Source: Candidatus Binatia bacterium
GTDB taxonomy: Bacteria > Desulfobacterota > Binatia > Bin18
Length of the DNA: 36,669 nucleotides
Assembly: GCA_050185455.1 (NCBI GenBank)
Contig: JBFWZL010000002.1
Coordinates: forward strand, 1-36,669
Direction: 5' to 3'
Part shown: positions 2,253 through 36,669 of the stretch, piece after piece
How the letters are laid out: the number at the start of each line of letters is the position of its first letter
How positions within the stretch are numbered: position 1 is the first letter of the stretch
Translations under genes and position numbers: made by a program
Notes under the pieces: model-generated
Database searches by the model: none
What the model was told of the DNA's origin: nothing
Seen by the model: only the letters and a program-made list of their open reading frames with translations

Positions 2253-3563
2253 ATGGACACGCGCAAAGTCTACATTGAAACGTACGGCTGCCAGATGAAC
2301 ATTGCCGACACCGAGCTATTGATCGGTCTGTTGAAACCGCATGGCTACGAACCGATTCAGAAAGCTGATCAGGCGGATGTGATTCTGCTAAACACGTGCG
2401 CCATCCGTGAACATGCTGAAGAGCGTGTGTTAAAGCGACTCAGTGAACTCGTCCGTCATAAAGCGAGAAAGCCAGGAGTACTGCTCGGTCTGACCGGCTG
2501 TATGGCCCAACATCACCGGGAACGCTTACTTGATAAAGCTCCGTTCCTCGACCTCGTGCTTGGTCCGGATGCGTATCGCGGCCTCCCAGCGCTGTTGGCG
2601 CGAGAAGACCAAAACGAGCCGCTTGTGGCCGTTCGTCTCAACCGCGACGAAACGTATGCGGATATCTCACCCGTGCACGCTGAAGGCATACGCGCTTGGG
2701 TGACGATTATGCGCGGTTGCGACAAGTTTTGTACCTTTTGCATCGTGCCATACGTCCGTGGCCGTGAACGGAGTGTACCGCTCACAGCGCTCCTTACTCA
2801 AGTTCGAGAACTTGCTGATCAGGGATATAAGGAAGTCGTCTACCTTGGCCAAACGGTGAACGCTTACCGCGATGGCGACGATGATTTTGCCGATCTCTTG
2901 AGAAAAACGGCTGAGATTGACGGCGTCCAACGCATTCGTTTCACCTCGCCACATCCAGCGGATATGACCAAGCGAGCGATTGAAGCGATGGCGGCCTGCG
3001 ATAAAGTCGCGCCGCATCTTCATCTGCCCTTGCAATCCGCCGCGAATCGAATACTGGAACGTATGGAGCGCGGTTATACAATTGAGCAGTACGCAGACTT
3101 AGTTGCCCGTTTACGAGCCGCCATTCCCACACTCGCCTTATCCACTGACATTATCGTTGGTTTCCCCGGCGAGGAAGAGAAAGATTTCCGCGCAACGTAT
3201 GAGTTCATGGAAGAGATACGGTACGATTCAGCCTTCATGTTCAAATACTCGGCCCGGGAAGGAACAAAAGCCTGCAAATGGGAAGAAACCTTATCCGAGG
3301 AAGAAAAAGGCCAACGCCTCCAGGAAATCATCGCGCTGCAAGAGCGAATCTCCGGTGAAATCAATCGACACATCATTGGACAAACAGTCGAGGTCCTTGT
3401 TGAGGGGCCAGCAAAGCGTCAAGCAGACTGGCTCTCGGGGAAGAACGGACAGTTCAAGACCGTTGTCTTCCCTGGAAACGGGGCGCAACCGGGTGACCTT
3501 GCGCCCGTCCGTGTGACGTCAACAACGGCGCATACTTTGATCGGTGAAGTTCCTTCCCATTAG
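2253..3563 (+). CDS. miaB: tRNA-i6A37 methylthiotransferase MiaB (radical SAM)
   Basis: N-terminal YIETYGCQMN (UPF0004 domain), radical-SAM CDKFCTFCIVP motif, C-terminal TRAM domain, 436 aa. Confidence 0.95.
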   Translation: MDTRKVYIETYGCQMNIADTELLIGLLKPHGYEPIQKADQADVILLNTCAIREHAEERVLKRLSELVRHKARKPGVLLGLTGCMAQHHRERLLDKAPFLDLVLGPDAYRGLPALLAREDQNEPLVAVRLNRDETYADISPVHAEGIRAWVTIMRGCDKFCTFCIVPYVRGRERSVPLTALLTQVRELADQGYKEVVYLGQTVNAYRDGDDDFADLLRKTAEIDGVQRIRFTSPHPADMTKRAIEAMAACDKVAPHLHLPLQSAANRILERMERGYTIEQYADLVARLRAAIPTLALSTDIIVGFPGEEEKDFRATYEFMEEIRYDSAFMFKYSAREGTKACKWEETLSEEEKGQRLQEIIALQERISGEINRHIIGQTVEVLVEGPAKRQADWLSGKNGQFKTVVFPGNGAQPGDLAPVRVTSTTAHTLIGEVPSH

Positions 3564-3669: not shown

Positions 3670-5550
3670 TTGGAAAAGAGAATGCACGATACCATAGCCC
3701 CTTCGCCCGTGACAAACGATCTTATCGAAAAACGGGCTGAAACTTGCGAAGGCGGCTCTGCTGCCGCGTCCGAGCCTTTGGTCGGACCAAGCACGGGATC
3801 TTTTGCCGCTCAACAGGTGCATCTCCTTTACATGCAGGCGAATATTGGGCTTCTGGGCACGGTCGTCCTTGCGGGAATCTTGATTTTCGTGTTGTGGTCA
3901 GTGGTTCCGCATGCCCAGCTTCTTGCGTGGTCTTCGCTTGTCAGCGTGTTGACTATCGCTCGGTTCTTTGTCGTGCAGCGCTACTTTCGTTCAGAACAGC
4001 GGGAAAAAGAGGTTGCTTGGTGGCGCTCTGCGATGATTATGAGCGCTGGTGCTAGCGGAATAGCGTGGGGATCAACAGCGATTTTTCTCTTCCCTGAAAC
4101 CTCCTTTGTTCATCAAATTTTTCTGACGTTCATGCTCGGAGGTCTAGCCGTAGGCGCCATGGGCGTTATGGCTACAGTGAGGACTGTCTTTCTTGTATTT
4201 TTCATTCCTACGCTGCTCCCTATTATGTTCCGACTTTTTTTTTCAGGTGGAGAGCTTTCTTCCACCATGGGCTTTCTCTTTGTGTTCTTCGCTCTTTTCG
4301 TTCTCGCTGCTGCACGTCACATGAATGAATCGATCGTGCAATCCTTGCAGTTGCGCTCAACTAATGTAGATCTGATCCACACACTTTCTCAAGCAAAAGA
4401 GGAAGCTGAGCGTATGAATAGTCAGCTCGCGGCTTCTCATGCTGCTCTCAGTAAAAGTGAAAAACGGTTCCGTTCTCTCACTGAGCACGCATCCGACTTG
4501 ATTTCGATTCTCGATGTAAAGGGTATCATGCGTTATCATAGTCCATCGATCACACGCTTGCTCGGCTATGAAGAACAAGAACTAGTCGGACATTCCGTCT
4601 CAACGCTCTTTCATTCCTTGGAAGAAGCAAAATTAAAGACTGCGTTCGCGGCCTTACGCACGGAGCCGTTACGGGTACAAGCCTTTGAACTCCGCATCCG
4701 CCACAAAAACGGTTCCTGGCGAATCTTCGAGAGCATCGCGCAAAACCTGCTCGACGATCCCGCCGTGAGAGGGATGGTCTTTAACTCGCGAGACATCACG
4801 GAAAGAAAAGAGATCGAACGGCTCAAGGACGATTTAGTCTCAACGGTTAGTCACGAGTTGCGCACGCCGCTCACAAGCCTCCGTGGCTTTGCCGAACTCA
4901 TGTTGACGCGAGAGTTCGCTCCAGAAAAACAGCGCCACTTTCTGCAGGTCATACTGAACGAAGGAACTCGCCTCACAAACTTGATCAATGATTTTCTCGA
5001 TATTCAGCGCATCGAATCCGGGCAGCAAACGTACCACTTCGAGACGATCACGTTGACGTCTCTTCTACGTGATGCGCTTGAAGTCTTTCGCGCCGACGAG
5101 AGTCAGCATTCCTTACGCCTAGAAGCGCCTGACAACTTATCCCCGGTGCGCGCTGATGCGGACCGCTTGCACCAAGTGCTGGCAAACTTGGTTTCCAACG
5201 CCATAAAATTTTCTCCCAAGGGTGGGACGGTCATCATACGAGCGCGCCAGACAGCGGATCAAATCGTCGTTGAGGTTGCTGACCAGGGCGTAGGCATTCC
5301 ACCCGACGTTATCACTCAGCTTTTCCAAAAATTCTATAGAGTGGACAACACCGAGACGCGTAGCATTGGCGGGACAGGCCTTGGTCTCGCCTTGGTCAAA
5401 GACATTATTACGGCGCACAGCGGCCAAGTGTGGGTCGAGAGTCAGCTAAACGTAGGCAGTTCGTTCTTTTTCTCCCTCCCAATCGTTAGGCATGACGTCA
5501 CCATGCCAGAACCAGAGGTCGCTTTTCGAGAAGAAAGGTTACGGGTTTAA
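3670..5550 (+). CDS. membrane-bound PAS sensor histidine kinase (no cognate response regulator adjacent)
   Basis: About 6 hydrophobic helices in the N-terminal 220 aa, then a PAS region. H-box VSHELRTPLTSL, N-box NLVSNAIKFSP, G-boxes DQGVGIP and GGTGLGLALV. The start may be the ATG at 3682 rather than the TTG at 3670. Confidence 0.9.
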   Translation: MEKRMHDTIAPSPVTNDLIEKRAETCEGGSAAASEPLVGPSTGSFAAQQVHLLYMQANIGLLGTVVLAGILIFVLWSVVPHAQLLAWSSLVSVLTIARFFVVQRYFRSEQREKEVAWWRSAMIMSAGASGIAWGSTAIFLFPETSFVHQIFLTFMLGGLAVGAMGVMATVRTVFLVFFIPTLLPIMFRLFFSGGELSSTMGFLFVFFALFVLAAARHMNESIVQSLQLRSTNVDLIHTLSQAKEEAERMNSQLAASHAALSKSEKRFRSLTEHASDLISILDVKGIMRYHSPSITRLLGYEEQELVGHSVSTLFHSLEEAKLKTAFAALRTEPLRVQAFELRIRHKNGSWRIFESIAQNLLDDPAVRGMVFNSRDITERKEIERLKDDLVSTVSHELRTPLTSLRGFAELMLTREFAPEKQRHFLQVILNEGTRLTNLINDFLDIQRIESGQQTYHFETITLTSLLRDALEVFRADESQHSLRLEAPDNLSPVRADADRLHQVLANLVSNAIKFSPKGGTVIIRARQTADQIVVEVADQGVGIPPDVITQLFQKFYRVDNTETRSIGGTGLGLALVKDIITAHSGQVWVESQLNVGSSFFFSLPIVRHDVTMPEPEVAFREERLRV

Positions 5551-5584
5551 GGCTTTAGAGTTTGCTCCCCCCTTAGCCAGCAGC

Positions 5585-5938
5585 CTATTCTAACAACTCC
5601 GTCACCTTCTCCGAGGGGCGGGCAAGCACCGCTTTCTGTCCTTTAATGATAACCGGACGTTGCATAAGCTCTGGATGTTCGAGCAAGACCTCGATGACTG
5701 CTTCGCGAGTAACATACTGATTCTCATCGAGACCCAGCTCCTTGAAACGTTTATCCTTGCGCACAAGGTCCGCTGGGGGATTGGGTAAAAGATCGAGAAA
5801 GCGCTCAAAATCCTCTCGGTTCAAAGGATTTTTCAAATATTCGATAACGTCGAACTCGACGCCGCGCTCACGCAAAATATCGAGCGCTCCACGCGACTGC
5901 CCTCAGCCAGGATTGTGATAAACCAGTAGTCGTTCCAT
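5585..5938 (-). CDS. arsC: glutaredoxin-type arsenate reductase (ArsC family) with in-frame TGA (5905-5903) at the catalytic Cys position; probable selenocysteine
   Basis: ATG at 5938 with GGAGG 8 nt upstream. Reads MERLLVYHNPG-TGA-GQSRGALDILRERGVEF... in frame with the 96-aa ORF 5585..5875. Full-length resemblance to ArsC (YHNPxCxxSR, ..QRPVII.., ..ARPSE..). Confidence 0.7.
5856..5896 (-). promoter_or_regulatory. candidate bacterial SECIS stem-loop downstream of the arsC TGA
   Basis: Upper stem GCGCUCG (5887-5881) pairs with UGAGCGC (5870-5864). The 10-nt loop is AUAUUUUGCG. A possible lower stem pairs 5896-5892 with 5861-5856, with one bulged U. The upper stem starts 16 nt after the TGA. 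Confidence 0.45.
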
Positions 5939-6045
5939 AGTCACCGCCTCCGTAATGGGATATGCCTTTTACCTACCTGGAACGACGCTTGTCTGCTAGC
6001 CCAGAGAAAAAGAGTTAAAAAGGCGAAGAGGAGGAACGGCCACGC

Positions 6046-7578
6046 ATGAAGGTAGGTTTCAACAAAATTGATCAAGCAAAAGAAACGCAATCCGGACTTG
6101 AGCCCTGGAAAGTAGCTGAACTACCAGCCCCTCCCATGCTCAAAGGGCTCAATTTTTTTGGTGTTATCGGTCCAGGAGCCATCATCTTAGGAACGTCGAT
6201 CGGCAGCGGTGAGTGGTTGCTGGGCCCGGCTGCATTTGTGAAGTATGGGATGTCGCTACTGTGGGTGACAACAGCCGCCGTATTGCTCCAGGCTATTCTC
6301 AACACCGAGCTGATCCGCTACACCCTGTACACGGGCGAGCCTGCTATCACCGGCTTCATGCGCACGAAACCACATTCCACCTTTTGGGCCTGGTTTTACT
6401 CTCTCCTGTATTTGCTACAGGTGGGATGGCCGGCATGGGCAGGCGCGGCGGCGGGCGCAATTTTCTATCTCTTCACGGGGCAATCTGCGACCGCGGATCA
6501 TGGATCAGCCATCTACTGGATCGGCGTCGGCACGTTTGCCGCGTGCGTGGTCATCCTCTTCAGCGGTAGTCACATCGAACGCACGTTGGAGATTCTGAAC
6601 TGGATTCTGATCGTTTTTATCCTGGGAACCTTGCTGGTGCTGAGTCTACTCTTTGCTGACGGTCAGCGTTGGCTGGAAGCGGGAGCAGGGTTTATCGGGG
6701 TGAATCTCTCGGCGCGCTCATTTTCATTGTTTCCTCCAGGAGCGGACTGGTTCCTGATTGGCGCGTTCGCCGCCTATTCAGGCGCGGGAGGCGTGACGAA
6801 CTTGACGCTCTCAAACTGGGCGCGTGACAAGGGTTTTGGCATGGGCAAAGTCGTCGGCTTCATTCCCGCTGCTATCGGAGGGCAGAGCGTTTTACTGGCG
6901 CACTCCGGCAGTGTTTTTGCCATTACACCTGGCAATTTGGCAAAGTGGAAAAGCTGGTGGACAATCATTCGCATCGATCAATGGGGGGTCTTTTTCATTG
7001 GGGCTTTATTGGGAATGGGCTTACCCGCCGTACTCTACACCTCGTTCCTCCAACCAGGAGAGGATATTCGCGGGCTCGCCGTGGCAACGGCGTTAGCTGA
7101 CGCCATGACGACGCGTGGAGGAGCCGCGCTCAGTTTTTTGGTCGCTTTCATGGGCGCGTGGGTGCTGTTTAAGACCCAGCTCGATATCCTTGAGGGGACC
7201 GTACGCGCGGTAACAGACATTCTATGGACCGGCAGTAGCCGCGTGCGCGCCTGGAGTGATGGAGATGTCCGTCTGGTGTACTACTCGGTGTTGGCAGGCT
7301 TCGTCGTGTGGGGGCTCATTGCGTCCGGTCTGGCGCAGCCGATTATCTTGTTACAGCTTGGCGCGAACATCGCGGGCATCGTCCTCGCGATCAGCGCCAT
7401 GCATATTCTTTACGTCAACACCACATTTCTGCCCAAAGAAATCCAACCGCCGTTGTGGCGGCGCCTCGCGCTCGTGTCGCTCACGCTCTTCTACAGTTTC
7501 TTTGTGTACTTGTGGCTCATGGGAGGGATCGTACCTGACCCTAGCAAGGGGTTTCTGTTCAGCCTCATCGGGAAATGA
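6046..7578 (+). CDS. NRAMP-like (APC superfamily) polytopic membrane transporter, divergent metal-site motifs
   Basis: 510 aa, about 11-12 hydrophobic segments. GPGAIILGTSIGSGEWLLGPAAFVKYGMSLLWV resembles NRAMP TM1 (GPG...DPGN...YGyxLLWV) but has GSGE in place of DPGN. Confidence 0.65.
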   Translation: MKVGFNKIDQAKETQSGLEPWKVAELPAPPMLKGLNFFGVIGPGAIILGTSIGSGEWLLGPAAFVKYGMSLLWVTTAAVLLQAILNTELIRYTLYTGEPAITGFMRTKPHSTFWAWFYSLLYLLQVGWPAWAGAAAGAIFYLFTGQSATADHGSAIYWIGVGTFAACVVILFSGSHIERTLEILNWILIVFILGTLLVLSLLFADGQRWLEAGAGFIGVNLSARSFSLFPPGADWFLIGAFAAYSGAGGVTNLTLSNWARDKGFGMGKVVGFIPAAIGGQSVLLAHSGSVFAITPGNLAKWKSWWTIIRIDQWGVFFIGALLGMGLPAVLYTSFLQPGEDIRGLAVATALADAMTTRGGAALSFLVAFMGAWVLFKTQLDILEGTVRAVTDILWTGSSRVRAWSDGDVRLVYYSVLAGFVVWGLIASGLAQPIILLQLGANIAGIVLAISAMHILYVNTTFLPKEIQPPLWRRLALVSLTLFYSFFVYLWLMGGIVPDPSKGFLFSLIGK

Positions 7579-9364: not shown

Positions 9365-9963
9365 CTATAGAGTCTTCTGAACTCGACCAAAACGCGGGGG
9401 TCAAGATTCTGATTTATGAGGAAATTTCAGTCTCCATGTTGGAGAGCTGTAAATGCTGTGGATTATCCCGGAACGTTGAGAGACAGAAGAGCAAGGCCCG
9501 ACCGTCGTGAGAACCATCCTTCCACACACTTCCTTTGCGCGTGAAGTCCACAGGCGCAAACTTTGCCCCTAACCATCTCTGCCAGCGTGGGAGGCTCTCC
9601 AATCCCGCGGTATATACACCACCATGCTGACTATCGAAGAGATGCCTGTGCAGATAACGCCACAAGACTGCAAAAGAGTGAAGGTATACGTCATTGTCCT
9701 CCACGACGCTGCTTAATGCGAGCAAGGCCTTCAGCGCCTCAAATTGCACCCACCACACTTTTTTGCGCACTCTAAGGTCGTCACCTTCAATGTATGTGGG
9801 CGGTGGAGCTGGACCAGCATAGAAAAACCCCCCCTTGGCGGTATCCCATGTATGCCGCAAGGCAAAATCCTCAAGCCGCTGAGCGACGCCAATGATCTTG
9901 TCCGGTGCGCCAACGAGATCTCGCGCCACTACTAAACGGTGCGCTATCTGGAATGCGTAGCCG

Positions 9964-9972
9964 TAGCGCATG
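9964..9972. repeat. target-site duplication (left copy) TAGCGCATG
   Basis: Identical 9-mer directly flanks both ends of the IS (9964-9972 and 11411-11419). Boundary ambiguity is 1-2 bp because the shared string extends to TAGCGCATGGG. Confidence 0.7.
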
Positions 9973-11410
9973 GGTCAAGTCCTTCTTTTCCTGGAAAATT
10001 AGGCAGCAGACGCAGCGCTTCGCCGGGGTTGGGCGCTTGCAGGAGGCGACAGCACGGTCGGGTCGTCCAGTTGCTGCTGTCGCCGCAAGCTGTGGATCTG
10101 GTGTTGTTCAAAGGCACTAAAGCATTTCTTCCCCCAACGCTCACTGACACGGATCAAGACGGCAAAGACGAGTTTCACCACACTCCCTTCGTCCCACAAA
10201 TGCGGAATGACCTTGGTGCGGCGGCGTTCCTCTTCAAAGGCGCGCTCCGCTAAGTTGGAGGTGCGGACATATGGTTGGTGACGCTGGGGGACATAGAGGT
10301 GGTTCAGACTCGCCTCGGCGTCGTCGAGTAGGCAGCGAGAGGCTTCCGGAAAATCGCGCTGATAGCGATTGACAATGAGTTGGCGGCGCCGTTCGGCTTC
10401 GGCCACCGTGGGCGCATCGCGCATATCGGCCACCAGCTGCTTAAACTCGGGCCACGCTTGCGGCGGCACCTTTTGCTGGAGGTTTTGCATTTTGTGAAAC
10501 CAACACCGGATGCGCAGAGATTTCGGCCAGATGGTGTCGATGGCTTTGGTCAACCCTGCCGCCCCATCGGTCGTAATCGTCACCGGCGTCGGCAGGCCCC
10601 GCTTGATCAAATCGCGCAGCACCTCCCGACAACTCTCGTAACTTTCGCTATTCGCCGTGGAGAGCGCGAGCAATACCTTGCGCCCGTCCACGCAGATCGC
10701 CCACACGCAAAATACCCCCAGCTTGCTCCCCCACCGCCGCAACGGTTCATAGACTGCATCCATAAACAGGTACGCCACCTCATACCCGCTCAGATCCCGC
10801 GTACGAAAGGCTTCGTACTCCTGCGTCAGGGTATCGGTCAGCTCACTGACCATGCTCTTGGAGAGAATAAACTGCCCTAGGGCCTTCTCTAAACCATATT
10901 CAATGTCCCGTTGCGAGAGCCCGCCCGCATACATCTCCACAATGAGCCGCTTCAAGTTTTCACTCGTGTTCGCCAATTCATCCCAGAGGTGGGAGCGCGG
11001 AGGTTCTGACCGCCCGCTGATTTGCGGCACTTTGAGCCGTAATAGTCCTTCGGCGGTCTTGAGCGTCCCGTCCTCATACCCATTCCGATAGCCTCGACTG
11101 CCTGCCCGCCGCTCGTAGCGGGCTCGTCCTAGGGTTTCGGTCTGTTCTTGTTCTAAGGCCTCTTGTAAAATGCGCTCGGTTGAAAGCCGCACAAGGGCGC
11201 TGAGCAACTCGCTGCCGCTCTGCGCTTGGGCCTGTCCTTCTAACATGGCTCTCAACTCCTGGGCCTTGTGCTCACTTGGTGCTATCCTTTGGCTCATACG
11301 GGAGGTCCTCCTTCTGGTCGGTCGTTAATCTCTGGTCGCGCTTTGATTAACTACCCAAGAAGTGCTTCCCGTCTACTCCCACCTTTTTCCAGACATCTTA
11401 GGACATGATC
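9973..11410 (-). mobile_element. IS256-family insertion sequence (about 1.44 kb)
   Basis: Single mutator-type transposase ORF. Imperfect terminal inverted repeats GGTCAAGTCCT...CTGGAAAA (left) versus the reverse complement of the right end, GATCATGTCCT...CTGGAAAA (18 of 26 positions match by hand). Flanked by a 9-bp direct repeat. Confidence 0.85.
9999..11297 (-). CDS. IS256-family (mutator-type) transposase
   Basis: 432 aa. Typical IS256 layout and motifs (..GYRNGY..., ..YLFMDAVY.., ..ITTDGAAGL.., ..RCWFHKMQN..). Confidence 0.9.
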   Translation of the reverse strand: MSQRIAPSEHKAQELRAMLEGQAQAQSGSELLSALVRLSTERILQEALEQEQTETLGRARYERRAGSRGYRNGYEDGTLKTAEGLLRLKVPQISGRSEPPRSHLWDELANTSENLKRLIVEMYAGGLSQRDIEYGLEKALGQFILSKSMVSELTDTLTQEYEAFRTRDLSGYEVAYLFMDAVYEPLRRWGSKLGVFCVWAICVDGRKVLLALSTANSESYESCREVLRDLIKRGLPTPVTITTDGAAGLTKAIDTIWPKSLRIRCWFHKMQNLQQKVPPQAWPEFKQLVADMRDAPTVAEAERRRQLIVNRYQRDFPEASRCLLDDAEASLNHLYVPQRHQPYVRTSNLAERAFEEERRRTKVIPHLWDEGSVVKLVFAVLIRVSERWGKKCFSAFEQHQIHSLRRQQQLDDPTVLSPPASAQPRRSAASAA

Positions 11411-11419
11411 TAGCGCATG
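11411..11419. repeat. target-site duplication (right copy) TAGCGCATG
   Basis: See left copy. The premature TAG that ends the N-terminal AGE fragment is built from the TSD plus the first IS base. Confidence 0.7.
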
Positions 11420-12209
11420 GGGTGAGGCACTGGCGTCCAATCCGGTTGGCAGAGGAAGAAAACCGGTCCCGTAGCGAGAATCATCTTGTCGCAAAGAATA
11501 CGGACAAGTTCCTGCAAGCGCTCGACCACCTTCGGATCAGGCCAGGCGCGATACAAATACGTGAACGTTTGGAGCAGGTCGATGTGCACATTGCAGTCCT
11601 TCAACCCAATGGGTGTGTCAATCGTGTCGGTCACCGCTGACCAAGGACAGTCGGATGGATCACGGATTACAACCCCCTCGTGCGTGAGAAAGCCGAAGTA
11701 CCCGCCGTATTGGTTGTCGTGCGCATATTGTTCAAGCCACAGAAATCCTTCACGGGCCAGAGATAGTGCATCCATATTTCCCGTGGCGGTATGGACAGCG
11801 ACACTCGCAGCAATGGCATAGGCCGCGCCGTGAACATGTTTGGTGCGCGCCTCAAGCGGTTCCCCAGCGCGATCTGTCCTATGAAACCAACCACCTGTCT
11901 TATGATCCCACATGACTTCGCGGAGGCAGCGGAATCCGTGAAGGGTGGCTTGGCGTAAGCGCTCATCGTAGGGAGCGTATTGTAAGGCTTCAGCGGCGAG
12001 CCAGGTCTGTCACGCTTGAAATTCCAGGAGCTTCTCGTGCGTTCCGCACGGCTGCCACGTTCGATCGAAATCACAGAGGAAACCACCATATTGACGATCA
12101 ATGCAACGTGGAAACCACGCATCGATCACATGCCGCTGAAGAACGGCTTCAAGTTCTTCCTCTGTTGGTAAACGTAAGGCGCTCACTGCAGCTGAAGCCT
12201 TAATCGTTG

Positions 12210-23959: not shown

Positions 23960-24037
23960 TGTGGATAATTCTGTGGATGAAGGGGAAAAATCTCATATGC
24001 AACAAGAGGTTACAGAGTTATTCACAGGTGTGGATAA
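23960..24037. promoter_or_regulatory. DnaA-box cluster upstream of dnaA (left part of a bipartite oriC and/or dnaA autoregulation)
   Basis: TGTGGATAA 23960-23968, TGTGGATGA 23972-23980, TTATTCACA 24018-24026, TGTGGATAA 24029-24037. Confidence 0.7.
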
Positions 24038-24068
24038 CTTACGCACCGACGCGGAGCGGGAGTGGGGC

Positions 24069-25397
24069 ATGGAGCAGGTGTGGGAACAAGTGTTGGCGGC
24101 CGTAGAGGAGAAGGTTGGGAAGACAACAACCGAAACCTGGCTGAAACCGATACGACCGATTGCGCTACGCGAAGATACGCTGCATCTGGAAGTCCCAAGC
24201 TCACTCTTTCGTGACTGGCTTCTAGGCAATCTGATGGGTCCCCTGAGAGAGGCTTTGGAGACTAGTCTTGGATACCCAGCTCAGATCATTATTCATATCG
24301 CTAACAAGCCGCAGGGAGAATTATTTTCGACCAGCATCCCAGAGCCGGAAAAGCAAGATCAGACTCGTGCGCTACGCAAAAACGGTCTTGTCAATAACTA
24401 TACGTTTTCAACCTTTGTTGTCGGCGCTGGAAACCAGTTTGCTCACGCGGCTGCTCGCGCAGTCGCCGATCATCCAGGGAAGCACTACAATCCGCTTTTT
24501 ATCTACGGTGGGGTAGGACTCGGAAAAACACATATCATCAACGCGATCGGTCATGAAACGATGGTGAAGCAAGGACGCGGGAGCATTTTCTATCTCTCGT
24601 CCGAATCATTTACCAACGAGTTGATTTCACACCTGCGTCGTGACCGGATGGATGATTTTAAGCATAAGTTTCGTCAAGCCGACCTTCTTATTTTAGATGA
24701 CGTGCAGTTCTTATCCGGAAGAGAACGGACGCAAGAAGAATTTTTCCATACTTTTAACACTCTCTATGAATCACATAAGCAAATAGTTCTCACTTCTGAC
24801 AAGTTCCCTAATGAAATCACCGGCCTTGAAGAGCGATTGCGTAATCGCTTTGAGTGGGGACTTATTGCTGACATCCAACCTCCAGACTTAGAAACGCGAG
24901 TTGCGATTCTTCAAAGGAAAGCACATCTGAAAAGAATCAAACTCCCAACCGAAGTCGCACTCTACATCGCTTCGCACGTCACCGCCAATGTACGAGAACT
25001 GGAAGGTAATCTCACTCGCTTGTCGGCGCTTTCCACGCTCACGAATAGCGAAGTCACACTCGATTTCGCCCGGCAGGTCCTGCAAAACATAGTCAGGGAC
25101 AAAGAAAAAGAGGTCTCGATCGAGTCGGTTCAGAAAGCCGTGTGTAAGTATTTCGGTATTCGCGTGGCTGACCTGACGTCGAAGAGAAGGACACAACTGG
25201 TGGCGTTTCCCAGGCAGGTTGCTATGTTTCTCTGCAGGAAGCTCGCCGGAGCTTCCTATCCTATGATTGGCATGCGCTTTGGCGGCAAGGATCATACAAC
25301 TGCGCTGTACGCCTGCTCTTCCATCGAGAAACGTCTCAAGAAAGATGAAGAATTAAGAGAAGTCATCGAGAGAATCGAACGCATTGTGTATGGATGA
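24069..25397 (+). CDS. dnaA: chromosomal replication initiator DnaA
   Basis: Walker A GGVGLGKTH and a C-terminal DNA-binding domain. MEQVWEQVLAAVEEKVGKTTTETWLKP aligns with canonical DnaA N-termini. The longer track ORF (start 23961) begins inside a DnaA box. Confidence 0.95.
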   Translation: MEQVWEQVLAAVEEKVGKTTTETWLKPIRPIALREDTLHLEVPSSLFRDWLLGNLMGPLREALETSLGYPAQIIIHIANKPQGELFSTSIPEPEKQDQTRALRKNGLVNNYTFSTFVVGAGNQFAHAAARAVADHPGKHYNPLFIYGGVGLGKTHIINAIGHETMVKQGRGSIFYLSSESFTNELISHLRRDRMDDFKHKFRQADLLILDDVQFLSGRERTQEEFFHTFNTLYESHKQIVLTSDKFPNEITGLEERLRNRFEWGLIADIQPPDLETRVAILQRKAHLKRIKLPTEVALYIASHVTANVRELEGNLTRLSALSTLTNSEVTLDFARQVLQNIVRDKEKEVSIESVQKAVCKYFGIRVADLTSKRRTQLVAFPRQVAMFLCRKLAGASYPMIGMRFGGKDHTTALYACSSIEKRLKKDEELREVIERIERIVYG

Positions 25398-25406
25398 CGC
25401 AAAGGG

Positions 25407-25536
25407 GTGTGGATAACCCTGTGGATAACCCTGTGGATAACCCTGTGGATAACCTGTGGATAACCTGTGGATAACTTTTTTCGGCTTTGAGTTACTCACA
25501 GGTTATTCACACCTTTATCCACAGCACCTGTGGATA
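25407..25536. promoter_or_regulatory. oriC DnaA-box array in the dnaA-dnaN spacer
   Basis: Six perfect TGTGGATAA boxes start at 25407, 25419, 25431, 25443, 25454 and 25465. Reverse-oriented boxes are TTACTCACA (25491), TTATTCACA (25502) and TTATCCACA (25514). A further TGTGGATAA starts at 25528. Confidence 0.85.
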
Positions 25537-25568
25537 ACTTCGCCCTAATTTTTCGCTCACTTAAACCA

Positions 25569-25739
25569 CTTATTCACAGTTTTCACACCCCCTACTACTA
25601 CTACTATAAAGAAAATAAGAAGTAGTAGTAGGGAAAAGAGAGAGAAAGAAAGAGGAGACAATAAATAAAAAGAATGGAAGAATGGGAGAAAGAATACAGA
25701 AGAACTTAGGAAGACACGAATAGAGGGAGAGCGAAAGAC
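25569..25739. promoter_or_regulatory. putative origin unwinding module: box pair, GC cluster, DnaA-trio-like repeats, A/purine-rich tract
   Basis: TTATTCACA (25569-25577), GTTTTCACA (25578-25586), CCCCC (25587-25591), (CTA)5 (25591-25605), then an A+G-rich sequence running to the dnaN start. Confidence 0.6.
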
Positions 25740-26891
25740 ATGGCAAAGGAAAAGGACTTGGAATGTACGATCGAGAAGGAAGAATTATTGCGCTGTCTGT
25801 ATTTAGTTCAAGGAGTAGTAGAGAAGCGCTCGTCTCTTCCTATTCTCTCTCATGTGTTGATCGAGGGTTCAGATGAAATAGTTTCGCTGGGTGCAACAGA
25901 TTTAGAAATCGGGATTCGTCAACAATGCAAAGCAACGATAAAGAAGGGTGGGGCGGTGACAACTGATGCGCGAAAGTTGTACGAGATAGTGAGAGAACTT
26001 CCCCCTGAACGCCTCGTCCTGCGTTCCTCGGGAGAAGGGTGGGTCGAAGTTAGTAGTGGACGCTCTCGCTTTCGCATGGCGAGTTTCGATCCCAAGGAGT
26101 TTCCGGCTATCACCCTAGGAGCGGGGCAGAAAGACGAAAAAAAAATCCCGGTATCCGTCTCCCTCTCGGGGAAGATATTGGGGGAGATGATAGAAAAAAC
26201 TCTCTTCGCTTCCTCTCCTGATGAATCACGACTCAATCTTAGCGGTGTGTATGCCGAGGCTCTGCCGAGCGGGAAACTACGCTTGGTCTCTAGTGATGGA
26301 CATCGCCTCGCCATTATTGAACGAGAGACAGGAATATCCGATCCAGACGCCTGGCCTCATGTTATCCTTCCAAGGAAAGGCCTGATAGAAGCAAGAAAAC
26401 TTTTAGAAAAGGACGAAGGAGAAACAGACCTGTCCCTTCATGGCTCTACGGCTGTTATTAAAAAGGGAACAACTGAACTCTCTATGCGCCTGATTGAAGG
26501 GGACTTCCCAGACTATCAACAGGTCGTACCGAAAGAAAAGAAGAACTTCATCTCTTTTTCGCGCGAGGAGTTCCTTGGCGCTATCCGTCGCCTTCTTGTC
26601 CTGACCACGGAACGAGCCCGAGGAGTTAAACTACAAGTCGAGAAAGAAAAAATGACGGTCTCCGTCAATACTCCAGATCTCGGGGAAGGAGTAGAAGAGA
26701 TCGAAATAGAAAATAAGGGCGGGGACATCATTATCGGATTCAATGGGAGGTATCTCACTGAGGTTCTCAACGTTATTGATGAAGGCGTAAGAATAAAGCT
26801 ATACCTGAAAGATGAAGTGAGTCCGGGTCTGCTACAAGCAGAAGAAGACGAAGATTTTTCTTATATCATTATGCCTATGAGAATATTCTAA
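25740..26891 (+). CDS. dnaN: DNA polymerase III beta sliding clamp
   Basis: 383 aa. Typical three-domain clamp pattern with C-terminal ..YIIMPMRI. GGGAGAG RBS upstream. Confidence 0.95.
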   Translation: MAKEKDLECTIEKEELLRCLYLVQGVVEKRSSLPILSHVLIEGSDEIVSLGATDLEIGIRQQCKATIKKGGAVTTDARKLYEIVRELPPERLVLRSSGEGWVEVSSGRSRFRMASFDPKEFPAITLGAGQKDEKKIPVSVSLSGKILGEMIEKTLFASSPDESRLNLSGVYAEALPSGKLRLVSSDGHRLAIIERETGISDPDAWPHVILPRKGLIEARKLLEKDEGETDLSLHGSTAVIKKGTTELSMRLIEGDFPDYQQVVPKEKKNFISFSREEFLGAIRRLLVLTTERARGVKLQVEKEKMTVSVNTPDLGEGVEEIEIENKGGDIIIGFNGRYLTEVLNVIDEGVRIKLYLKDEVSPGLLQAEEDEDFSYIIMPMRIF

Positions 26892-26991
26892 ATTTGAAAA
26901 ACAGTTCTAAACCTAACTTTCTTAGAAATTCAGGTTTACTTAGCTACAGAATGATGGTAAGATTTGTGATCTGTAAGAGCGCAAAAAATAA

Positions 26992-29427
<2,436 letters not shown>

Positions 29428-29502
29428 CGGCAATCCCCAAAACCCTTTTCTCCTTTTTTAAGGATTCTAGGGCACGAAAATACGCTAGTAGGACCATTGC
29501 GG

Positions 29503-32016
29503 ATGGAAAATTCAGCGAACGGGCATCTTATTCCAGTCAATATTGAACAGGAAATGCGGCAATCCTTTATGGACTACGCGATGAGCGTCATTATCAGCAG
29601 AGCGCTGCCAGACGTTCGCGACGGTCTCAAACCTGTCCATCGTCGCGTCCTCTATGCAATGTCTGAATTGAGCAATGATTGGAACCGCCCATACAAGAAA
29701 TCCGCTCGCATTGTTGGGGATGTCATCGGAAAGTATCATCCTCATGGGGATGTGGCGGTCTACGACACCATCGTGCGAATGGCGCAAGATTTCTCCCTTC
29801 GTTATCCCCTGGTTGACGGGCAAGGCAATTTTGGCTCAATCGACGGCGATCCTCCAGCAGCAATGCGTTACACCGAGATCCGCATGACTCGCATTGCCAG
29901 CGAACTCCTAGAGGACATTGACAGAGAGACTGTTGACTTCATACCGAACTACGATGACACGAGTAAAGAGCCAGTTGTTCTGCCGGCAAAACTTCCCAAT
30001 CTCCTCATCAATGGCTCTTCAGGCATTGCTGTTGGTATGTCCACTAACATTCCCCCGCATAATCTCGGAGAGGTGGTCGATGCGCTCCTTGCTTTGATTG
30101 ACAATCCAAGCCTCAGTATTTCTGATCTCATGAAATATATTCCTGGGCCGGATTTCCCAACAGGCGCCTTCATTTATGGCGTATCTGGAGTACGTGAGGC
30201 GTACGAAACAGGAAAAGGCATCGTCCAAATGCGAGCTCGTACATCTATTGAGATAGATAAACGTAGCGGAAAGAACTGCATTATTGCCGAGGAAATCCCT
30301 TTTCAGGTCAATAAAGCCCGCCTCATAGAACGTATGGCTGAACTGGTCAACGAGAAACGTCTCGAAGGCATATCGGATCTGCGGGACGAGTCTGACCGGG
30401 ACGGGATGCGGATCGTTATCGAGCTGAAGCGCGACGCCGTTCCCAATGTCGTCCTGAATCAACTGTACAAAATGACTCCTTTACAGGAGTCTTTCGGCAT
30501 CATCTTTCTTGCGATCGTGGATGGTCGTCCTCTCCTGCTGACCCTAAAAGATGCGTTGTTGTACTTTCTTACCCATCGGCGAGAGGTCATTCAACGTAGG
30601 ACGATCTTTGATCTGGGAAAAGCACAGGAGCGCCTTCATATTCTAGAAGGGCTAAAAATTGCGCTCGATAACCTCGATGCGGTACTCCAGCTCATTCGAA
30701 CTGGGCAGAACCCGGGGAGTGTCCGGCAGGGGCTGATGACGCAGTTTTCCTTGAGCGATGTACAGGCGCAGGCAATTCTCGACATGCGCCTCCACCGCCT
30801 AACGCAGCTAGAGCAGGGAAAAATTCTGGCTGAACATACGGAAACACTCGCTCTTATCAACCGCTTGCAGGAAGTTCTAGCTAGCGCATTCGAGATAAAC
30901 GCTCTTATCAAAGAAGAACTGACCGATCTTCGCACTCGCTTTGCCGATGAACGCCGCACTCAGATCGTGTTTGAGACGACCGATCTTTCCGCGGAAGATC
31001 TGATCGCGGAAGAAGATATGGTCGTCACTATCTCTCACGAAGGCTATATCAAGAGAAATCCCACAACGTTGTATCGCTCTCAGCGACGCGGGGGAAAAGG
31101 CGTCGTCGGAGCTACTACCAGAGAGGAAGATTTCGTCGAGCATCTTTTTATTTCTTCCACCCATGCGTTCTTACTGTTCTTCACTACCATAGGTCGGGTG
31201 CATTGGGTAAAAGTCCATGAAATCCCTCAAGGGAGTAGAACGGCAAAAGGAAAAGCGATCATCAACCTTTTGCCGTTGAGAGAAGAAGAAAAAATCTCTG
31301 CGTATCTTCCCGTAAAAGAGTTTCAAGAGGGGCACTATGTTGTCTTTGCCACTCGTAAAGGGCTCGTTAAGAAAACTGAACTGATGGCGTATGGGAACCC
31401 GCGCCGCGATGGCATCATTGCTCTTTCCCTTGAAGAGGATGATGAAGTCATCGGAGTGAAGCTCACAGATGGGAAGCAAGAAATTCTTCTCTCCACGAAA
31501 AAAGGGCAAGCTATCCGCTTTTCCGAAGAAGAAGTGAGGCCCACAGGCAGAGGAACTTACGGAGTAAAAGGCATCACCTTGGATGAAGGAGACGCTGTTG
31601 TTTCTCTTGAAATATTGAATAAAGAATCGACTCTGCTCACTGTTTCCTCTGGAGGGTACGGAAAACGCAGCGAGATCGATGAATACCGGGTACAGTCGCG
31701 TGGGGGAAAAGGCGTCATCACCATGCGTATGACTGAAAAGACTGGAGATGTGATCAGCGTACGGCAAGTGACGGACGATGACCACCTTATGTTAATAACC
31801 GACAGCGGACGCATCATCCGGCTTCGTATGTCTGAACTCCGCGTTATCGGACGAAATACGCAAGGTGTACGTCTTTTCAACGTTGGCCCTGAGGAAAGAG
31901 TAGCAAGTCTTGCACTGCTAGCAGAAAAGGAGGATGAAGTAGAAGCCGAAGAAAGTTCGATCGTTTTGGAGGAAGTCTCTATTGTTGAAGATCAAACAAA
32001 CCACACGGTGGAATAA
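29503..32016 (+). CDS. gyrA: DNA gyrase subunit A
   Basis: [32 protein letters not shown], active-site AAMRYTE, C-terminal beta-pinwheel repeats, acidic tail. ATG at 29503 is preferred over the TTG at 29497. Confidence 0.97.
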
Positions 32017-32025
32017 GGAGGATTT

Positions 32026-32496
32026 ATGAGTGTTCAAATAGGACAAAAGGCCCAGGATTTTACGCTAAAAACCAATAAGATGCAGGATTTTAAGTTAAGC
32101 GACCTACAAGGGAAGAAAAATGCTGTCCTTCTCTTTGTACCGCTCGCCTTTACTGGTGGATGCACGAAAGAATTTTGCTCCGTGCGAGACAATATCAACA
32201 CCCTCCAAAATGATAACACCCAGGTTGTAGGAATCAGCGTCGATAGTCCCTTTTCACTTGATGCATGGGCGAATAAGGAGGGGTACAACTTCCCCCTCTT
32301 AAGCGACTTCAACAAAGAAGTATCTACTGCTTATGGAGCGATCTATGAAAACCTTCTCGGCTTCAAAGGCGTGGCCAAACGGTCTGCTTTTGTCGTCGAT
32401 AAACAGGGAGTTGTTCGCTACGCGTGGGTCAGTGAGGACGCCGGAAAGTTGCCAGATCTCGACCCAATCCGTGACTGCTTAAATCAATGCGGCTGA
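32026..32496 (+). CDS. bcp: peroxiredoxin, BCP/PrxQ-like (Cys-x4-Cys)
   Basis: AVLLFVPLAFTGGCTKEFC matches the PxxxTxxC peroxidatic motif, with a resolving Cys 5 residues downstream. AAGGAGG RBS lies in the 9-nt gap after gyrA. Confidence 0.8.
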   Translation: MSVQIGQKAQDFTLKTNKMQDFKLSDLQGKKNAVLLFVPLAFTGGCTKEFCSVRDNINTLQNDNTQVVGISVDSPFSLDAWANKEGYNFPLLSDFNKEVSTAYGAIYENLLGFKGVAKRSAFVVDKQGVVRYAWVSEDAGKLPDLDPIRDCLNQCG

Positions 32497-34843: not shown

Positions 34844-35650
34844 CTACTGCTCTTCATACCACTGAATTGCTCCACGTAACCCTCGTTCCTTCTGAACTTT
34901 TCTAATCTCTTCATTCCCCGGGCCAAAATGGAAAATAGCATCGTACTCGGCGCCAGAGAGAACGGAAGCGCGAAAGCCACGCAAGTCCATTGCTCGATTA
35001 ATTGCCATCTTTTCGAGCTGTAGTTTTTGCGCCGGCACTTTGGCGACCCTCCTGGCATAGCTGTACGTTTCTTCCTCTAGTTTCTCAGCAGGAAACGCAC
35101 GGGTAGCAAACCCCATTGCCTCCGCTTCTTTCCCACTAATCTGGCTACCGGGAAGGAAAGCGAGGTACTTGGTTCGATGCGGACCGACCATCCAATTCCA
35201 GAAAGCGCTGACGTAACCAGCCCCTGCAGGAATGGAGGGAAACCCGATCTTGGAGTTTTCGGCGACAAAAATCATATCTGTACAGATACAGATTTGTGTC
35301 GCCCCAGCTAGGCAATAGCCGTGTACCATTGCAATTACCGGTTTCGGAAGATCGCGCAGGCGGAGCCAATTTTCCACATAGCGCTGCAAGACTCTCCGGT
35401 CATCATCAATGGTAAAGGGCTTTCCACTCCCGTCTCCCCATCCTCCACTGAGATCGTACCCAGTAGAAAATGCTCTCCCAGAGCCACGAATGATTAACAC
35501 TTTGATGTCAGGGTCTTTTTCCACCTGATTAATGGCCTCAACGAACTCAGTAATAAGTGCTGGGCTCAAAGCATTTAGTTTTTCCGGGCGATTCAATGTG
35601 AGCGTGCCGATGCGTTCCTTTTTTTCCAAAGTAATAGCGGTGAACTCCAT
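34844..35650 (-). CDS. enoyl-CoA hydratase/isomerase (crotonase) family protein
   Basis: IGTLTLNRPEKLNAL..., ..IAMVHGYCLAGA.. oxyanion-hole pattern. GGGGGAAG RBS before ATG 35650. The upstream 39 codons of the track ORF have no support. Confidence 0.85.
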   Translation of the reverse strand: MEFTAITLEKKERIGTLTLNRPEKLNALSPALITEFVEAINQVEKDPDIKVLIIRGSGRAFSTGYDLSGGWGDGSGKPFTIDDDRRVLQRYVENWLRLRDLPKPVIAMVHGYCLAGATQICICTDMIFVAENSKIGFPSIPAGAGYVSAFWNWMVGPHRTKYLAFLPGSQISGKEAEAMGFATRAFPAEKLEEETYSYARRVAKVPAQKLQLEKMAINRAMDLRGFRASVLSGAEYDAIFHFGPGNEEIRKVQKERGLRGAIQWYEEQ

Positions 35651-35827
35651 ACTTCCCCCTTTTCGTGTAGTGTTTTTGTGTCCACAGGAAAGAGGATAGC
35701 CGTTCGTTTCAAGCCTGTCGAAGCCAGTTCTGAATTCCTCGAAGAAGAAAAACGACCGCTGGCGCAAGAAACGTTGTCGGCATAAGCTGTGCGCCGATCA
35801 ATTTCTGTCTCTGAAAAGGAGAATCCC

Positions 35828-36669
35828 ATGAAAGCGATTCGTGTACACGAGTTTGGTCCTCCGGAAGTGCTCAAGCTGGAAGAAGTATCCGACCCCAAGC
35901 CCGATCCTGGCCAAGTAGTAGTTCGGATTCACGCCGCCGGCGTGAATCCGGTAGAAACGTACATCCGCTCTGGTATTTATCCAAAGCCTCCTACGCCAGA
36001 CACTCCTTATACCCCGGGTGCGGACGGCGCTGGGCTTATCGAAACAGTAGGTGAAGGAGTGACCCGCGTGAAAGTCGGCGACCGTGTCTATACCGCGGGA
36101 TCGCTGACTGGCACTTATGCGGAGAAGGCTCTCTGTAAAGAAACACAAGTATATCCTCTCCCTGAGCGTGCTTCTTTCGCCCAAGGAGCCTCAATGTTTG
36201 TTCCTTATGGAACTGCGTATCGTTCTTTGTTCCAACGAGCGCATGCAGGCCCTGGCGAGGTCGTTTTCGTTCATGGCGCCAGTGGTGGCGTTGGCATTGC
36301 CTCGGTGCAGCTGGCGCGAGCGGCGGGTATGAAAGTGATCGGTTCAGCTGGCACAGAAGAGGGAAGAAAACTTATTATTGAGCAGGGTGCTCATCATGCT
36401 CTTGACCATCGTTCCCCTGGATATCTGGAGCAAATCATGAAACTGACAAACGGACGCGGCGCCAATGTCATTCTAGAGATGCTCGCGAATGTAAACCTTG
36501 GCAATGATTTGCAAGTGCTAGCCTTCGGTGGGCGTGTCGTGATTATTGGCAATAGAGGAACGAACAATCAAGGAACCGTGGAAATTAATCCACGTGCAGC
36601 CATGCAGCGCGATGCTGCTATCCTTGGCATGACGCTGGTGAACGTATTGCCCTCCGATATGGAAAAAAT
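35828..36669 (+). CDS. zinc-independent MDR-family NADPH:quinone oxidoreductase (zeta-crystallin-like), 3' end cut by window edge
   Basis: Not in the ORF track because it has no stop. Hand translation: MKAIRVHEFGPPEVLKLEEV..VRIHAAGVNPVETY..VHGASGGVGIASVQLA. AAGGAGA RBS upstream. Confidence 0.85.
   Translation, partial: MKAIRVHEFGPPEVLKLEEVSDPKPDPGQVVVRIHAAGVNPVETYIRSGIYPKPPTPDTPYTPGADGAGLIETVGEGVTRVKVGDRVYTAGSLTGTYAEKALCKETQVYPLPERASFAQGASMFVPYGTAYRSLFQRAHAGPGEVVFVHGASGGVGIASVQLARAAGMKVIGSAGTEEGRKLIIEQGAHHALDHRSPGYLEQIMKLTNGRGANVILEMLANVNLGNDLQVLAFGGRVVIIGNRGTNNQGTVEINPRAAMQRDAAILGMTLVNVLPSDMEK

Follow-up and report, generated by a model that had tools for sequence, protein, structure and literature searches.

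A probable selenocysteine-containing ArsC-type arsenate reductase in a Candidatus Binatia contig, with a candidate RNA hairpin downstream of its in-frame UGA

The contig JBFWZL010000002.1 of a Candidatus Binatia bacterium, a 36.7-kb stretch of DNA that is analysed here in its entirety and referred to as the window, carries on its minus strand a gene of the arsenate reductase family ArsC with an in-frame TGA codon. Positions 5938-5585 very probably hold an intact gene for a glutaredoxin-type (R773-like) ArsC in which residue 12 is selenocysteine (Sec), specified by UGA 5905-5903. The gene is called as a fragment by automatic annotation and is almost certainly a genuine intact selenoprotein gene. 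This reading is supported because relatives have either Sec or cysteine (Cys) in the same column, because selection acts on both sides of the UGA, because a constraint on the RNA is specific to the TGA forms and because the class Binatia has Sec machinery. A first-pass annotation of the window, made from the sequence alone, had already proposed a selenoprotein, and the proposal is borne out by the distribution of TGA (69/79) and TGC (10/79) among scored loci, by purifying selection upstream of the TGA and by the RNA constraint specific to TGA forms.

Gene architecture and family assignment

5585..5938, minus strand: full-length arsC-type gene, 117 codons plus TAG, defined by PF03960, TIGR00014, the alignment to R773 ArsC and the relatives
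5947..5951, minus strand: Shine-Dalgarno-like GGAGG, 8 nt 5' of the ATG, seen in the sequence, with GGAGG or GAGG at the same place in relatives L001-L007
5906..5935, minus strand: 10 sense codons that separate the ATG from the UGA (ERLLVYHNPG) and show purifying selection at the protein level, with no upstream stops or frame changes
5903..5905, minus strand: UGA selenocysteine codon, motif U-G-Q-S (UxxS), in the column of the catalytic Cys12 of R773 ArsC

Read on the minus strand, the gene runs from ATG 5938-5936 through 10 sense codons to TGA 5905-5903 and from there through 105 sense codons to TAG 5587-5585, giving a product that starts MERLLVYHNPG-U-GQSRGALDIL... with selenocysteine placed at codon 12. 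The mechanical list of open reading frames (ORFs) contains only a 96-aa piece from an internal TTG at 5875. The ATG, the TGA, the GGAGG located 8 nt before the ATG and the TTG-initiated fragment had all been described in the first-pass annotation and are found in the sequence as described.

With Cys set at the TGA, the product matches PF03960 (Pfam ArsC; ArsC/Spx superfamily) over residues 7-114 with 50.2 bits (E 3.3e-13; cutoff 24). The same Cys-containing translation scores 104.9 bits with the equivalog model TIGR00014 (arsenate reductase (glutaredoxin)) and covers its positions 3-114 of 114, a score far above those of the other NCBIfam models, of which the next reaches 76.8 bits and the Spx-type models reach 53.7 and 34.5 bits. 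The catalytic roles of Arg60, Arg94 and Arg107 in R773 ArsC are established. Their equivalents are kept in the LVRKD, QRP and ARPSE segments of the window protein, which aligns with E. coli R773 ArsC (PDB 1JZW/1I9D) colinearly and residue for residue, 2-116 to 2-116. The two models and this alignment uphold the earlier statement that the joined 117-codon product is ArsC-like over its full length. The TGA was also said to fall on the nucleophilic Cys, and it does so because the residue-for-residue alignment places U12 of the window protein opposite R773 Cys12 in the YHNPxC loop. Judged from the sequence, the protein would reduce arsenate in vivo. As the first-pass annotation had remarked, no ars genes are adjacent: arsR, arsB, ACR3 and arsA are absent from the window and do not adjoin the gene in the relatives examined.

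Conservation of the TGA codon and its flanks

The list of arsC loci from the species-representative genome collection has 80 entries, of which 79 can be scored at codon 12. TGA is present in 69/79 and TGC in 10/79, so the allele is not unique to the window, a case that the first-pass annotation had allowed for. Most carriers belong to Candidatus Binatia, among them many closed chromosomes, and the others are Myxococcota, Candidatus Entotheonella and metagenome-assembled genomes (MAGs) of marine Pseudomonadales/Gammaproteobacteria. Closed chromosomes with a TGA-type arsC include OY729511.1, OZ252051.1 and OX638322.1. When only distinct sequences are counted, the codon is TGA in 68/68 Sec forms and TGC in 13/13 Cys forms, with the motif U-G-[QK]-S, and the column thus contains the Cys/Sec pairs that had been anticipated among homologues. 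The residue before Sec is Gly in 66 of the 68 distinct Sec forms and mostly Val, Ala or Ser in the Cys forms.

The nearest relatives in the protein collection are fragments of 95-98 aa that are 88-93% identical to the window's fragment, together with full-length proteins of 117 aa. The DNA behind the fragments shows the same arrangement at 9/9 metagenome loci, consisting of an ATG, ten conserved codons, the TGA and the rest of the gene, and the full-length relatives carry TGC and have the same N-terminus as the Sec forms. The TGA forms are drawn from JGI, ENA, Logan and NCBI assemblies of different samples.

Within the YHNPG codons (Y7-G11) of the 68 distinct Sec forms, 121 cells differ from the consensus codon, and 116 of these differences are synonymous while 5 are non-synonymous. 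The synonymous variants seen are TAT/TAC, CAC/CAT, AAC/AAT, CCT/CCC/CCG and GGT/GGC/GGG. No stop and no frameshift occurs upstream of the TGA in any of the 68 forms, and the 105 codons downstream of the UGA are also conserved among relatives. Because the excess of synonymous changes indicates purifying selection at the protein level, the 10 codons before the TGA are translated as part of the same protein. The same counts answer the earlier question of whether the 11 codons upstream of the TGA are conserved among homologues.

These results bear directly on the reading in which the gene is a pseudogene, its TGA a nonsense mutation, and yields no full-length protein. Such decay would agree with the gene caller finding only the 96-aa fragment, with a window that is without Sec machinery, with the nonsense TGA carried by another window gene and with the TTA found in place of the TGA in one relative (L428, on a 586-bp contig). 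Against this, the same TGA is shared by 69 species-level genomes from several phyla, the purifying selection on both sides of it is strong, the ribosome-binding site (RBS), frame and synteny of arsC are intact, and the TGA forms, coming as they do from JGI, ENA, Logan and NCBI, are not a product of misassembly at one source. Nor does arsC resemble the true pseudogene of the window, which is split by an insertion sequence (IS) and truncated. The chance that arsC is a decayed gene is therefore minute.

A second alternative accepts the UGA as a terminator and takes the functional product to be the 96-aa protein from TTG 5875, which is without the catalytic residue, with the 11-residue peptide possibly acting as a regulatory leader. 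The TTG is in frame, and regulation by a short upstream ORF that has a good RBS is in principle conceivable. The leader, however, encodes exactly the segment YHNPx of the active-site loop, its conservation is one of amino acids and not of nucleotides (116 vs 5), the TTG (Leu22) lies inside the thioredoxin-like fold so that the product would lose strand 1 and the nucleophile, and the Cys forms are full length with the same N-terminus. This alternative is rated only marginally above decay and is very improbable.

OX638322.1, a closed Binatia chromosome of 5.18 Mb, has two TGA-type arsC genes (L042 and L045) with identical N-terminal sequences, located at 5.14 Mb and 0.085 Mb and hence ~120 kb apart across the record ends. 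Five 'binchicken' MAGs with Binatia-like arsC (L018, L023, L049, L064 and L067) are titled 'uncultured Enterobacteriaceae bacterium', a label that is evidently unreliable for them. One of the five, L064, is the closest relative of the window ArsC in the genome collection (87%).

Selenocysteine machinery

The class Binatia decodes Sec, because tRNA-Sec, selA and selB are found in Binatia loci. In the Binatia MAG L193, a tRNA-Sec detected by a generic pattern scan is confirmed by ARAGORN and by RF01852 (77.7 bits against a gathering score of 47). Two Binatia-type tRNA-Sec variants give 115 and 99 matches in the genome collection, a large share of which are MAGs of Binatia, Binataceae and Candidatus Binatus, including closed chromosomes. 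At the Binatia locus L252 the tRNA-Sec lies beside selA (TIGR00474, 604.7 bits) and selB (TIGR00475, 410.8 bits), and on the Binatia chromosome OZ244621.1 (L243) it lies near selB (413.6 bits). The Sec machinery is established for the class, and this particular organism presumably has it.

The tRNA-Sec sequences of L216-L329 and L330-L427 are almost identical (acceptor GGAGAAGG...CCTTCTCC, with the same anticodon arm and T arm) and vary mostly in the extra arm. Near-identical copies occur in MAGs labelled Binatia, Acidobacteriota, Vicinamibacterales, Syntrophobacterales, Acidimicrobiia and Chloroflexota, which suggests either that the sequence is very strongly constrained or that the sel cluster has spread horizontally.

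A standard amino acid, namely Trp, Cys, Gly or Arg, could also be inserted at the UGA, either by near-cognate suppression or under a variant code. Some bacterial lineages reassign UGA, and this precedent favours such a reading, as does Sec machinery being established for the class and not for the same genome. In the window, however, UGA is an ordinary stop that ends 6/22 well-supported genes, including dnaA, and a reassigned genetic code is therefore excluded. The TGA is moreover confined to a column that otherwise holds only TGC, which is the classical Sec/Cys signature, a downstream hairpin with a G-U-containing tetraloop is conserved specifically in the TGA forms, and tRNA-Sec, selA and selB are present in the class. 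Insertion of a standard amino acid is thus highly improbable, if slightly less so than the two alternatives considered above.

The RNA element downstream of the UGA

5847..5862, minus strand: hairpin B, probable core of the selenocysteine insertion sequence (SECIS) and candidate SelB-binding hairpin, from RNAalifold, pair conservation, fold energy and third-position invariance
5847..5869, minus strand: zone in which synonymous variation is suppressed, at +36 to +58 counted from the U of the UGA, from per-site entropies; seen in TGA forms, absent in TGC forms
5864..5887, minus strand: hairpin A, the stem-loop of the first-pass annotation, stem 5887-5881 with 5870-5864 and a 10-nt loop, from pair conservation and folding

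Third-position entropy was calculated along the whole gene for the 68 Sec forms with a sliding 6-codon window. It has a single minimum of 0.14 bit at codons 24-29 (E-R-G-V-E-F), compared with a gene mean of 1.30, whereas the Cys forms (n=13) have 0.87 bit at the same codons and a mean of 1.09. Val27 is encoded by GTC in 68/68 Sec-form sequences, and at codons 26 (G/D/S/N) and 29 (F/V/C) of the Sec forms the amino acid varies while the third base, C, never does. Because the third base at these two codons is frozen while the amino acid changes, the constraint at codons 24-29 acts on the RNA and not on the protein, and the zone provides a clean natural example of an RNA signal embedded in a coding sequence.

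Hairpin B falls within this zone. It consists of a 6-bp stem GCGUCG/CGACGU closed by the tetraloop AGUU (5856-5853), with an optional seventh pair G5863-U5846. The six core pairs are formed in 55/55 distinct sequences, and all changes preserve pairing (G-U to A-U in 12 sequences, G-C to G-U in 8); loop variants among the relatives are AGGU and CGUG. Folded alone, the hairpin has an energy of -8.0 kcal/mol (z = -2.9), which 0/200 shuffles equal in stability, and its signature is found a single time in the window and not once in 100 shuffles. Across Binatia, Myxococcota, Entotheonella and marine Gammaproteobacteria its sequence is preserved almost to the base. An Rfam search of positions 5500-6100 gave no matching family up to E <= 1 and no SECIS family.

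The stem-loop that the first-pass annotation had described at 5887-5881/5870-5864, called hairpin A here, exists (-8.9 kcal/mol; z = -1.4 alone) but is not the main conserved element, which is hairpin B at 5862-5847. In the 55 distinct sequences, 82.6% of hairpin A cells are paired. Its lower five pairs (5887-5883 with 5868-5864) are formed in 42-55/55, its top three pairs are unpaired in 13-22/55 and its top two are formed in 33-37/55. The covariance check that had been suggested around hairpin A came out negative, with no covariation beyond shuffles in the 55 sequences. The stability of hairpin A by itself is unremarkable, and the wider region folds no better than shuffles, with z = 0.36 for 5850-5908, a segment that cuts hairpin B in half, and z = -0.56 for a longer stretch. 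In the longer fold, hairpins A and B abut and together reach -18.4 kcal/mol; as a spacer, hairpin A may reduce the distance that separates hairpin B from the UGA.

Two other structural models fare worse. An alternative stem at +16 to +35 is paired in 56% of cells overall. The long hairpin of minimum free energy (MFE), which pairs 8-14 with 38-44, was rejected because its pair at the third position of Ser15 is unpaired in 32/55.

Among close relatives of the TGC type, L008 and L009 are Cys forms whose protein is 90% identical and whose hairpin B is weakened; that of L008 is GGCGTTGAGGTCGATGTT, with all pairs wobble or standard. The weakened hairpin B is also kept in L010-L012, in L010 with one A-C mismatch. 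These sequences are consistent with the close TGC-type relatives having recently converted Sec to Cys and the RNA element having decayed afterwards. L428, the relative with TTA (GCA_044345325.1, positions 22-120 of the contig), encodes Leu in place of the TGA, has CAT (His) for the preceding CCT and retains an intact hairpin B; it is either an inactivated copy or a sequencing error on a very short contig.

Fit to the published bacterial SECIS model

In the published model of the bacterial SECIS (bSECIS), an upper stem of 4-16 bp carries an apical loop of 3-9 nt (PMC13188914, Fig. 2 legend). The model also asks for a G among the first two nucleotides of the loop, in most cases with G or U next, and sets a distance of 16-37 nt from the UGA to the apical loop and an MFE <= -7.5 kcal/mol (PMC13188914). 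Some bacterial elements deviate from this consensus, and most bear little sequence resemblance to one another (PMC13188914). Like the consensus element, whose prototype is that of E. coli fdhF, hairpin B is a small hairpin in the coding sequence 3' of the UGA with a G+C-rich upper stem (6-7 bp), a 4-nt apical loop (A-G-U-U) with G at position 2 and then U, and an energy of -8.0 kcal/mol, so that it passes the model for loop, stem, loop G and energy. It differs from the consensus in its distance from the UGA, with a poorly conserved second hairpin in the gap, and in having a sequence that is nearly identical across phyla. Hairpin A passes for spacing (22 nt) and energy (-8.9) and fails for loop size and loop G, the loop starting with A-U. 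The earlier statement that hairpin A has the position and shape of a SECIS therefore stands for its position and not for its shape, since the 10-nt loop exceeds 3-9 nt and has no G in its first two positions.

Several observations weigh against a selenoprotein decoded through hairpin B. The hairpin fails the spacing criterion, lying 46 nt from the UGA to the loop (5902-5857) compared with 16-37 nt. Its pairs are formed without any two-sided compensatory change, and the covariation of three structural models does not exceed that of shuffle controls, in both cases for the 55 distinct sequences; what speaks for hairpin B is therefore its conservation in the TGA forms specifically, and not covariation. 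The Val-Glu-x-Asp-Val peptide partly predisposes the sequence to the hairpin B palindrome, and close Cys forms retain a weakened hairpin B. On the protein side, the 104.9 bits scored against TIGR00014 miss its curated cutoff of 106.05 by 1.15 bits. The check for Sec genes proposed in the first-pass annotation succeeded for the class, with tRNA-Sec, selA and selB in Binatia, and not for the organism itself: the 36.7-kb window has no tRNA-Sec, selA, selB or selD, tRNA-Arg being its sole tRNA, and among the matches listed no tRNA-Sec assembly is shared with the 80 arsC loci.

The gene may also be a selenoprotein gene whose SECIS is hairpin A, or the +16 to +35 hairpin in the marine gammaproteobacterial members, with hairpin B conserved for some other reason. 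Hairpin A lies at the canonical spacing of 22 nt with its lower five pairs in 42-55/55, the 3' arm GAGCGC is under synonymous constraint in the Sec forms, and the marine Pseudomonadales have, also at canonical spacing, a 7-bp stem GCGCAAU/AUUGCGC with a 6-nt loop CGACAU in which G is second. Yet in the window the hairpin A loop, with 10 nt and no G at either of its first two nucleotides, is outside the published model, the upper pairs of hairpin A are unpaired in 18-22/55, the +16 to +35 stem is paired in only 56% of cells overall, and the strongest constraint specific to Sec forms sits on hairpin B. A proximal SECIS of this kind is unlikely, and hairpin B (5862-5847) is most likely the element that recruits SelB.

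A tentative proposal, to which the analysis gives appreciably less than even odds, is that ArsC(UxxS) genes use a non-canonical bipartite SECIS, in which hairpin B lies 46 nt from the UGA and is brought into range by a variable spacer hairpin. If this were true, the near-invariance of hairpin B across phyla would suggest an unusually strict fit between SelB and the RNA, or horizontal spread of the gene and its SECIS together. A candidate SECIS beyond the consensus spacing also bears on the window settings of SECIS search tools.

In the proposed mechanism, the ribosome would start at ATG 5938, translate the ten sense codons and reach UGA 5905-5903. An mRNA hairpin within the coding sequence, GCGUCG-AGUU-CGACGU at 5862-5847, would recruit SelB and Sec-tRNA(Sec), and Sec would be inserted instead of termination. 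The less conserved hairpin A (5887-5864), located between the UGA and hairpin B, may shorten the effective distance. Translation would then proceed to TAG 5585 and give a 117-residue selenoenzyme with a U-G-Q-S active site.

Relation to known families

The first-pass annotation had mentioned ArsC-like entries in selenoproteome surveys, correctly as it turns out, for the family is published (PMC1088965, PMC2398784, PMC13188914). A study of the Sargasso Sea metagenome introduced 'arsenate reductase' (COG1393) with UxxS as a new family of selenoproteins, comprising 14 sequences, and predicted a SECIS for it, drawn in Fig. 3 for AACY01238341 (Zhang, Fomenko & Gladyshev 2005, PMC1088965). The Global Ocean Sampling (GOS) selenoproteome survey of 2008 contains it as 'ArsC 1' (pfam03960, UxxS, 77 sequences; PMC2398784), and a 2026 review lists the UxxS arsenate reductase under TIGR00014 (PMC13188914). 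The window gene shares with this family the PF03960/TIGR00014 and COG assignment, the U-x-x-S motif in which Sec takes the column of the catalytic Cys, a stem-loop that lies downstream of the UGA and the widespread occurrence of Cys-containing homologues. The ocean surveys sampled organisms of the kind represented here by the marine gammaproteobacterial members, whereas the window copy and most of its relatives come from Candidatus Binatia and other soil/sediment lineages. With its U-G-Q-S motif the window gene is a member of the published UxxS ArsC selenoprotein family and not a new kind of system.

Two other groups are useful for comparison. R773 ArsC (PDB 1I9D, 1J9B, 1JZW) shares the HNPxC(U)xxSR loop, the arginine triad and colinearity over 2-116, whereas the window protein has Sec for Cys12, is 117 aa long compared with 141 and has no C-terminal extension. 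The window gene also lies outside an ars operon, its neighbours being genes for a MiaB-like radical-SAM protein, a periplasmic binding protein and a histidine kinase. A separate family with UxxC is known as 'Arsenate reductase 2' or arsenate reductase-like and corresponds to cd03032 in the GOS survey (PMC2398784) and to NF041106 in the 2026 review (PMC13188914). Membership of the ArsC/Spx superfamily, the thioredoxin-like fold and a Sec near the N-terminus are common to both, but that family has a UxxC redox pair, while the window protein is of the UxxS type and scores 104.9 bits with TIGR00014 compared with 53.7/34.5 for the Spx-type models.

A literature search found no paper that links Binatia/Binatota with selenocysteine or selenoproteins. 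What has come to light is a gene overlooked by annotation in a lineage that has been little studied, and its only unusual feature is the distal hairpin, which is nearly invariant across phyla and lies outside the consensus spacing; general knowledge of selenoproteins is unchanged by it. Gene callers cut the gene to a catalytically dead 96-aa fragment, as in P0006, P0047, P0051, P0053, P0069, P0077 and P0112 of the protein collection, and arsenic/redox metabolism and selenium dependence are therefore under-annotated in Candidatus Binatia and related soil lineages.

Genomic context and other features of the window

In a scan of the window for TGA-interrupted ORFs, 52 mechanical candidates were obtained and only arsC is credible. 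The candidate at 34847-36184 was rejected as an artefact of two real genes on opposite strands, and that at 11413-12186 as a pseudogene disrupted by an IS element. The latter belongs to a GlcNAc-2-epimerase-family gene (PF07221; 9414-12186, minus strand) that is broken into two pieces. The 5' piece (11416-12186) is interrupted by an in-frame nonsense TGA within EFQA*Q, and the 3' piece spans 9414-9971. The gene is split by an IS256/Mutator-family transposase gene (PF00872) at 9999-11297, and the region 9414-12186 is a true pseudogene with a recent IS insertion.

In relatives L001, L002, L005 and L010-L014, arsC is directly followed by a convergent MiaB-like radical-SAM/TRAM gene and then by a Peripla_BP_2 gene. 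Both genes are present in the window (2253-3563 and 942-1862, respectively), but a PAS-histidine kinase gene (3670-5550, plus strand) is inserted there between arsC and the radical-SAM gene. Divergent from arsC, with ~107 nt between the ATGs, lies a gene for an apparently polytopic membrane protein of 510 aa (6046-7578, plus strand), which has no Pfam match at E <= 1e-4. The upstream neighbours of the relatives differ from that of the window and include MMPL and PAP2 genes.

Further along the plus strand, dnaA, dnaN, gyrB and gyrA stand in a row (23961-32016), and because these genes are consecutive, the contig covers the neighbourhood of the chromosomal replication origin. A Cys-type peroxiredoxin (FTGGCTKE) is encoded after gyrA at 32026-32496. 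The window also contains a glycolate-oxidase-like cluster, and its other genes are unrelated to selenium.

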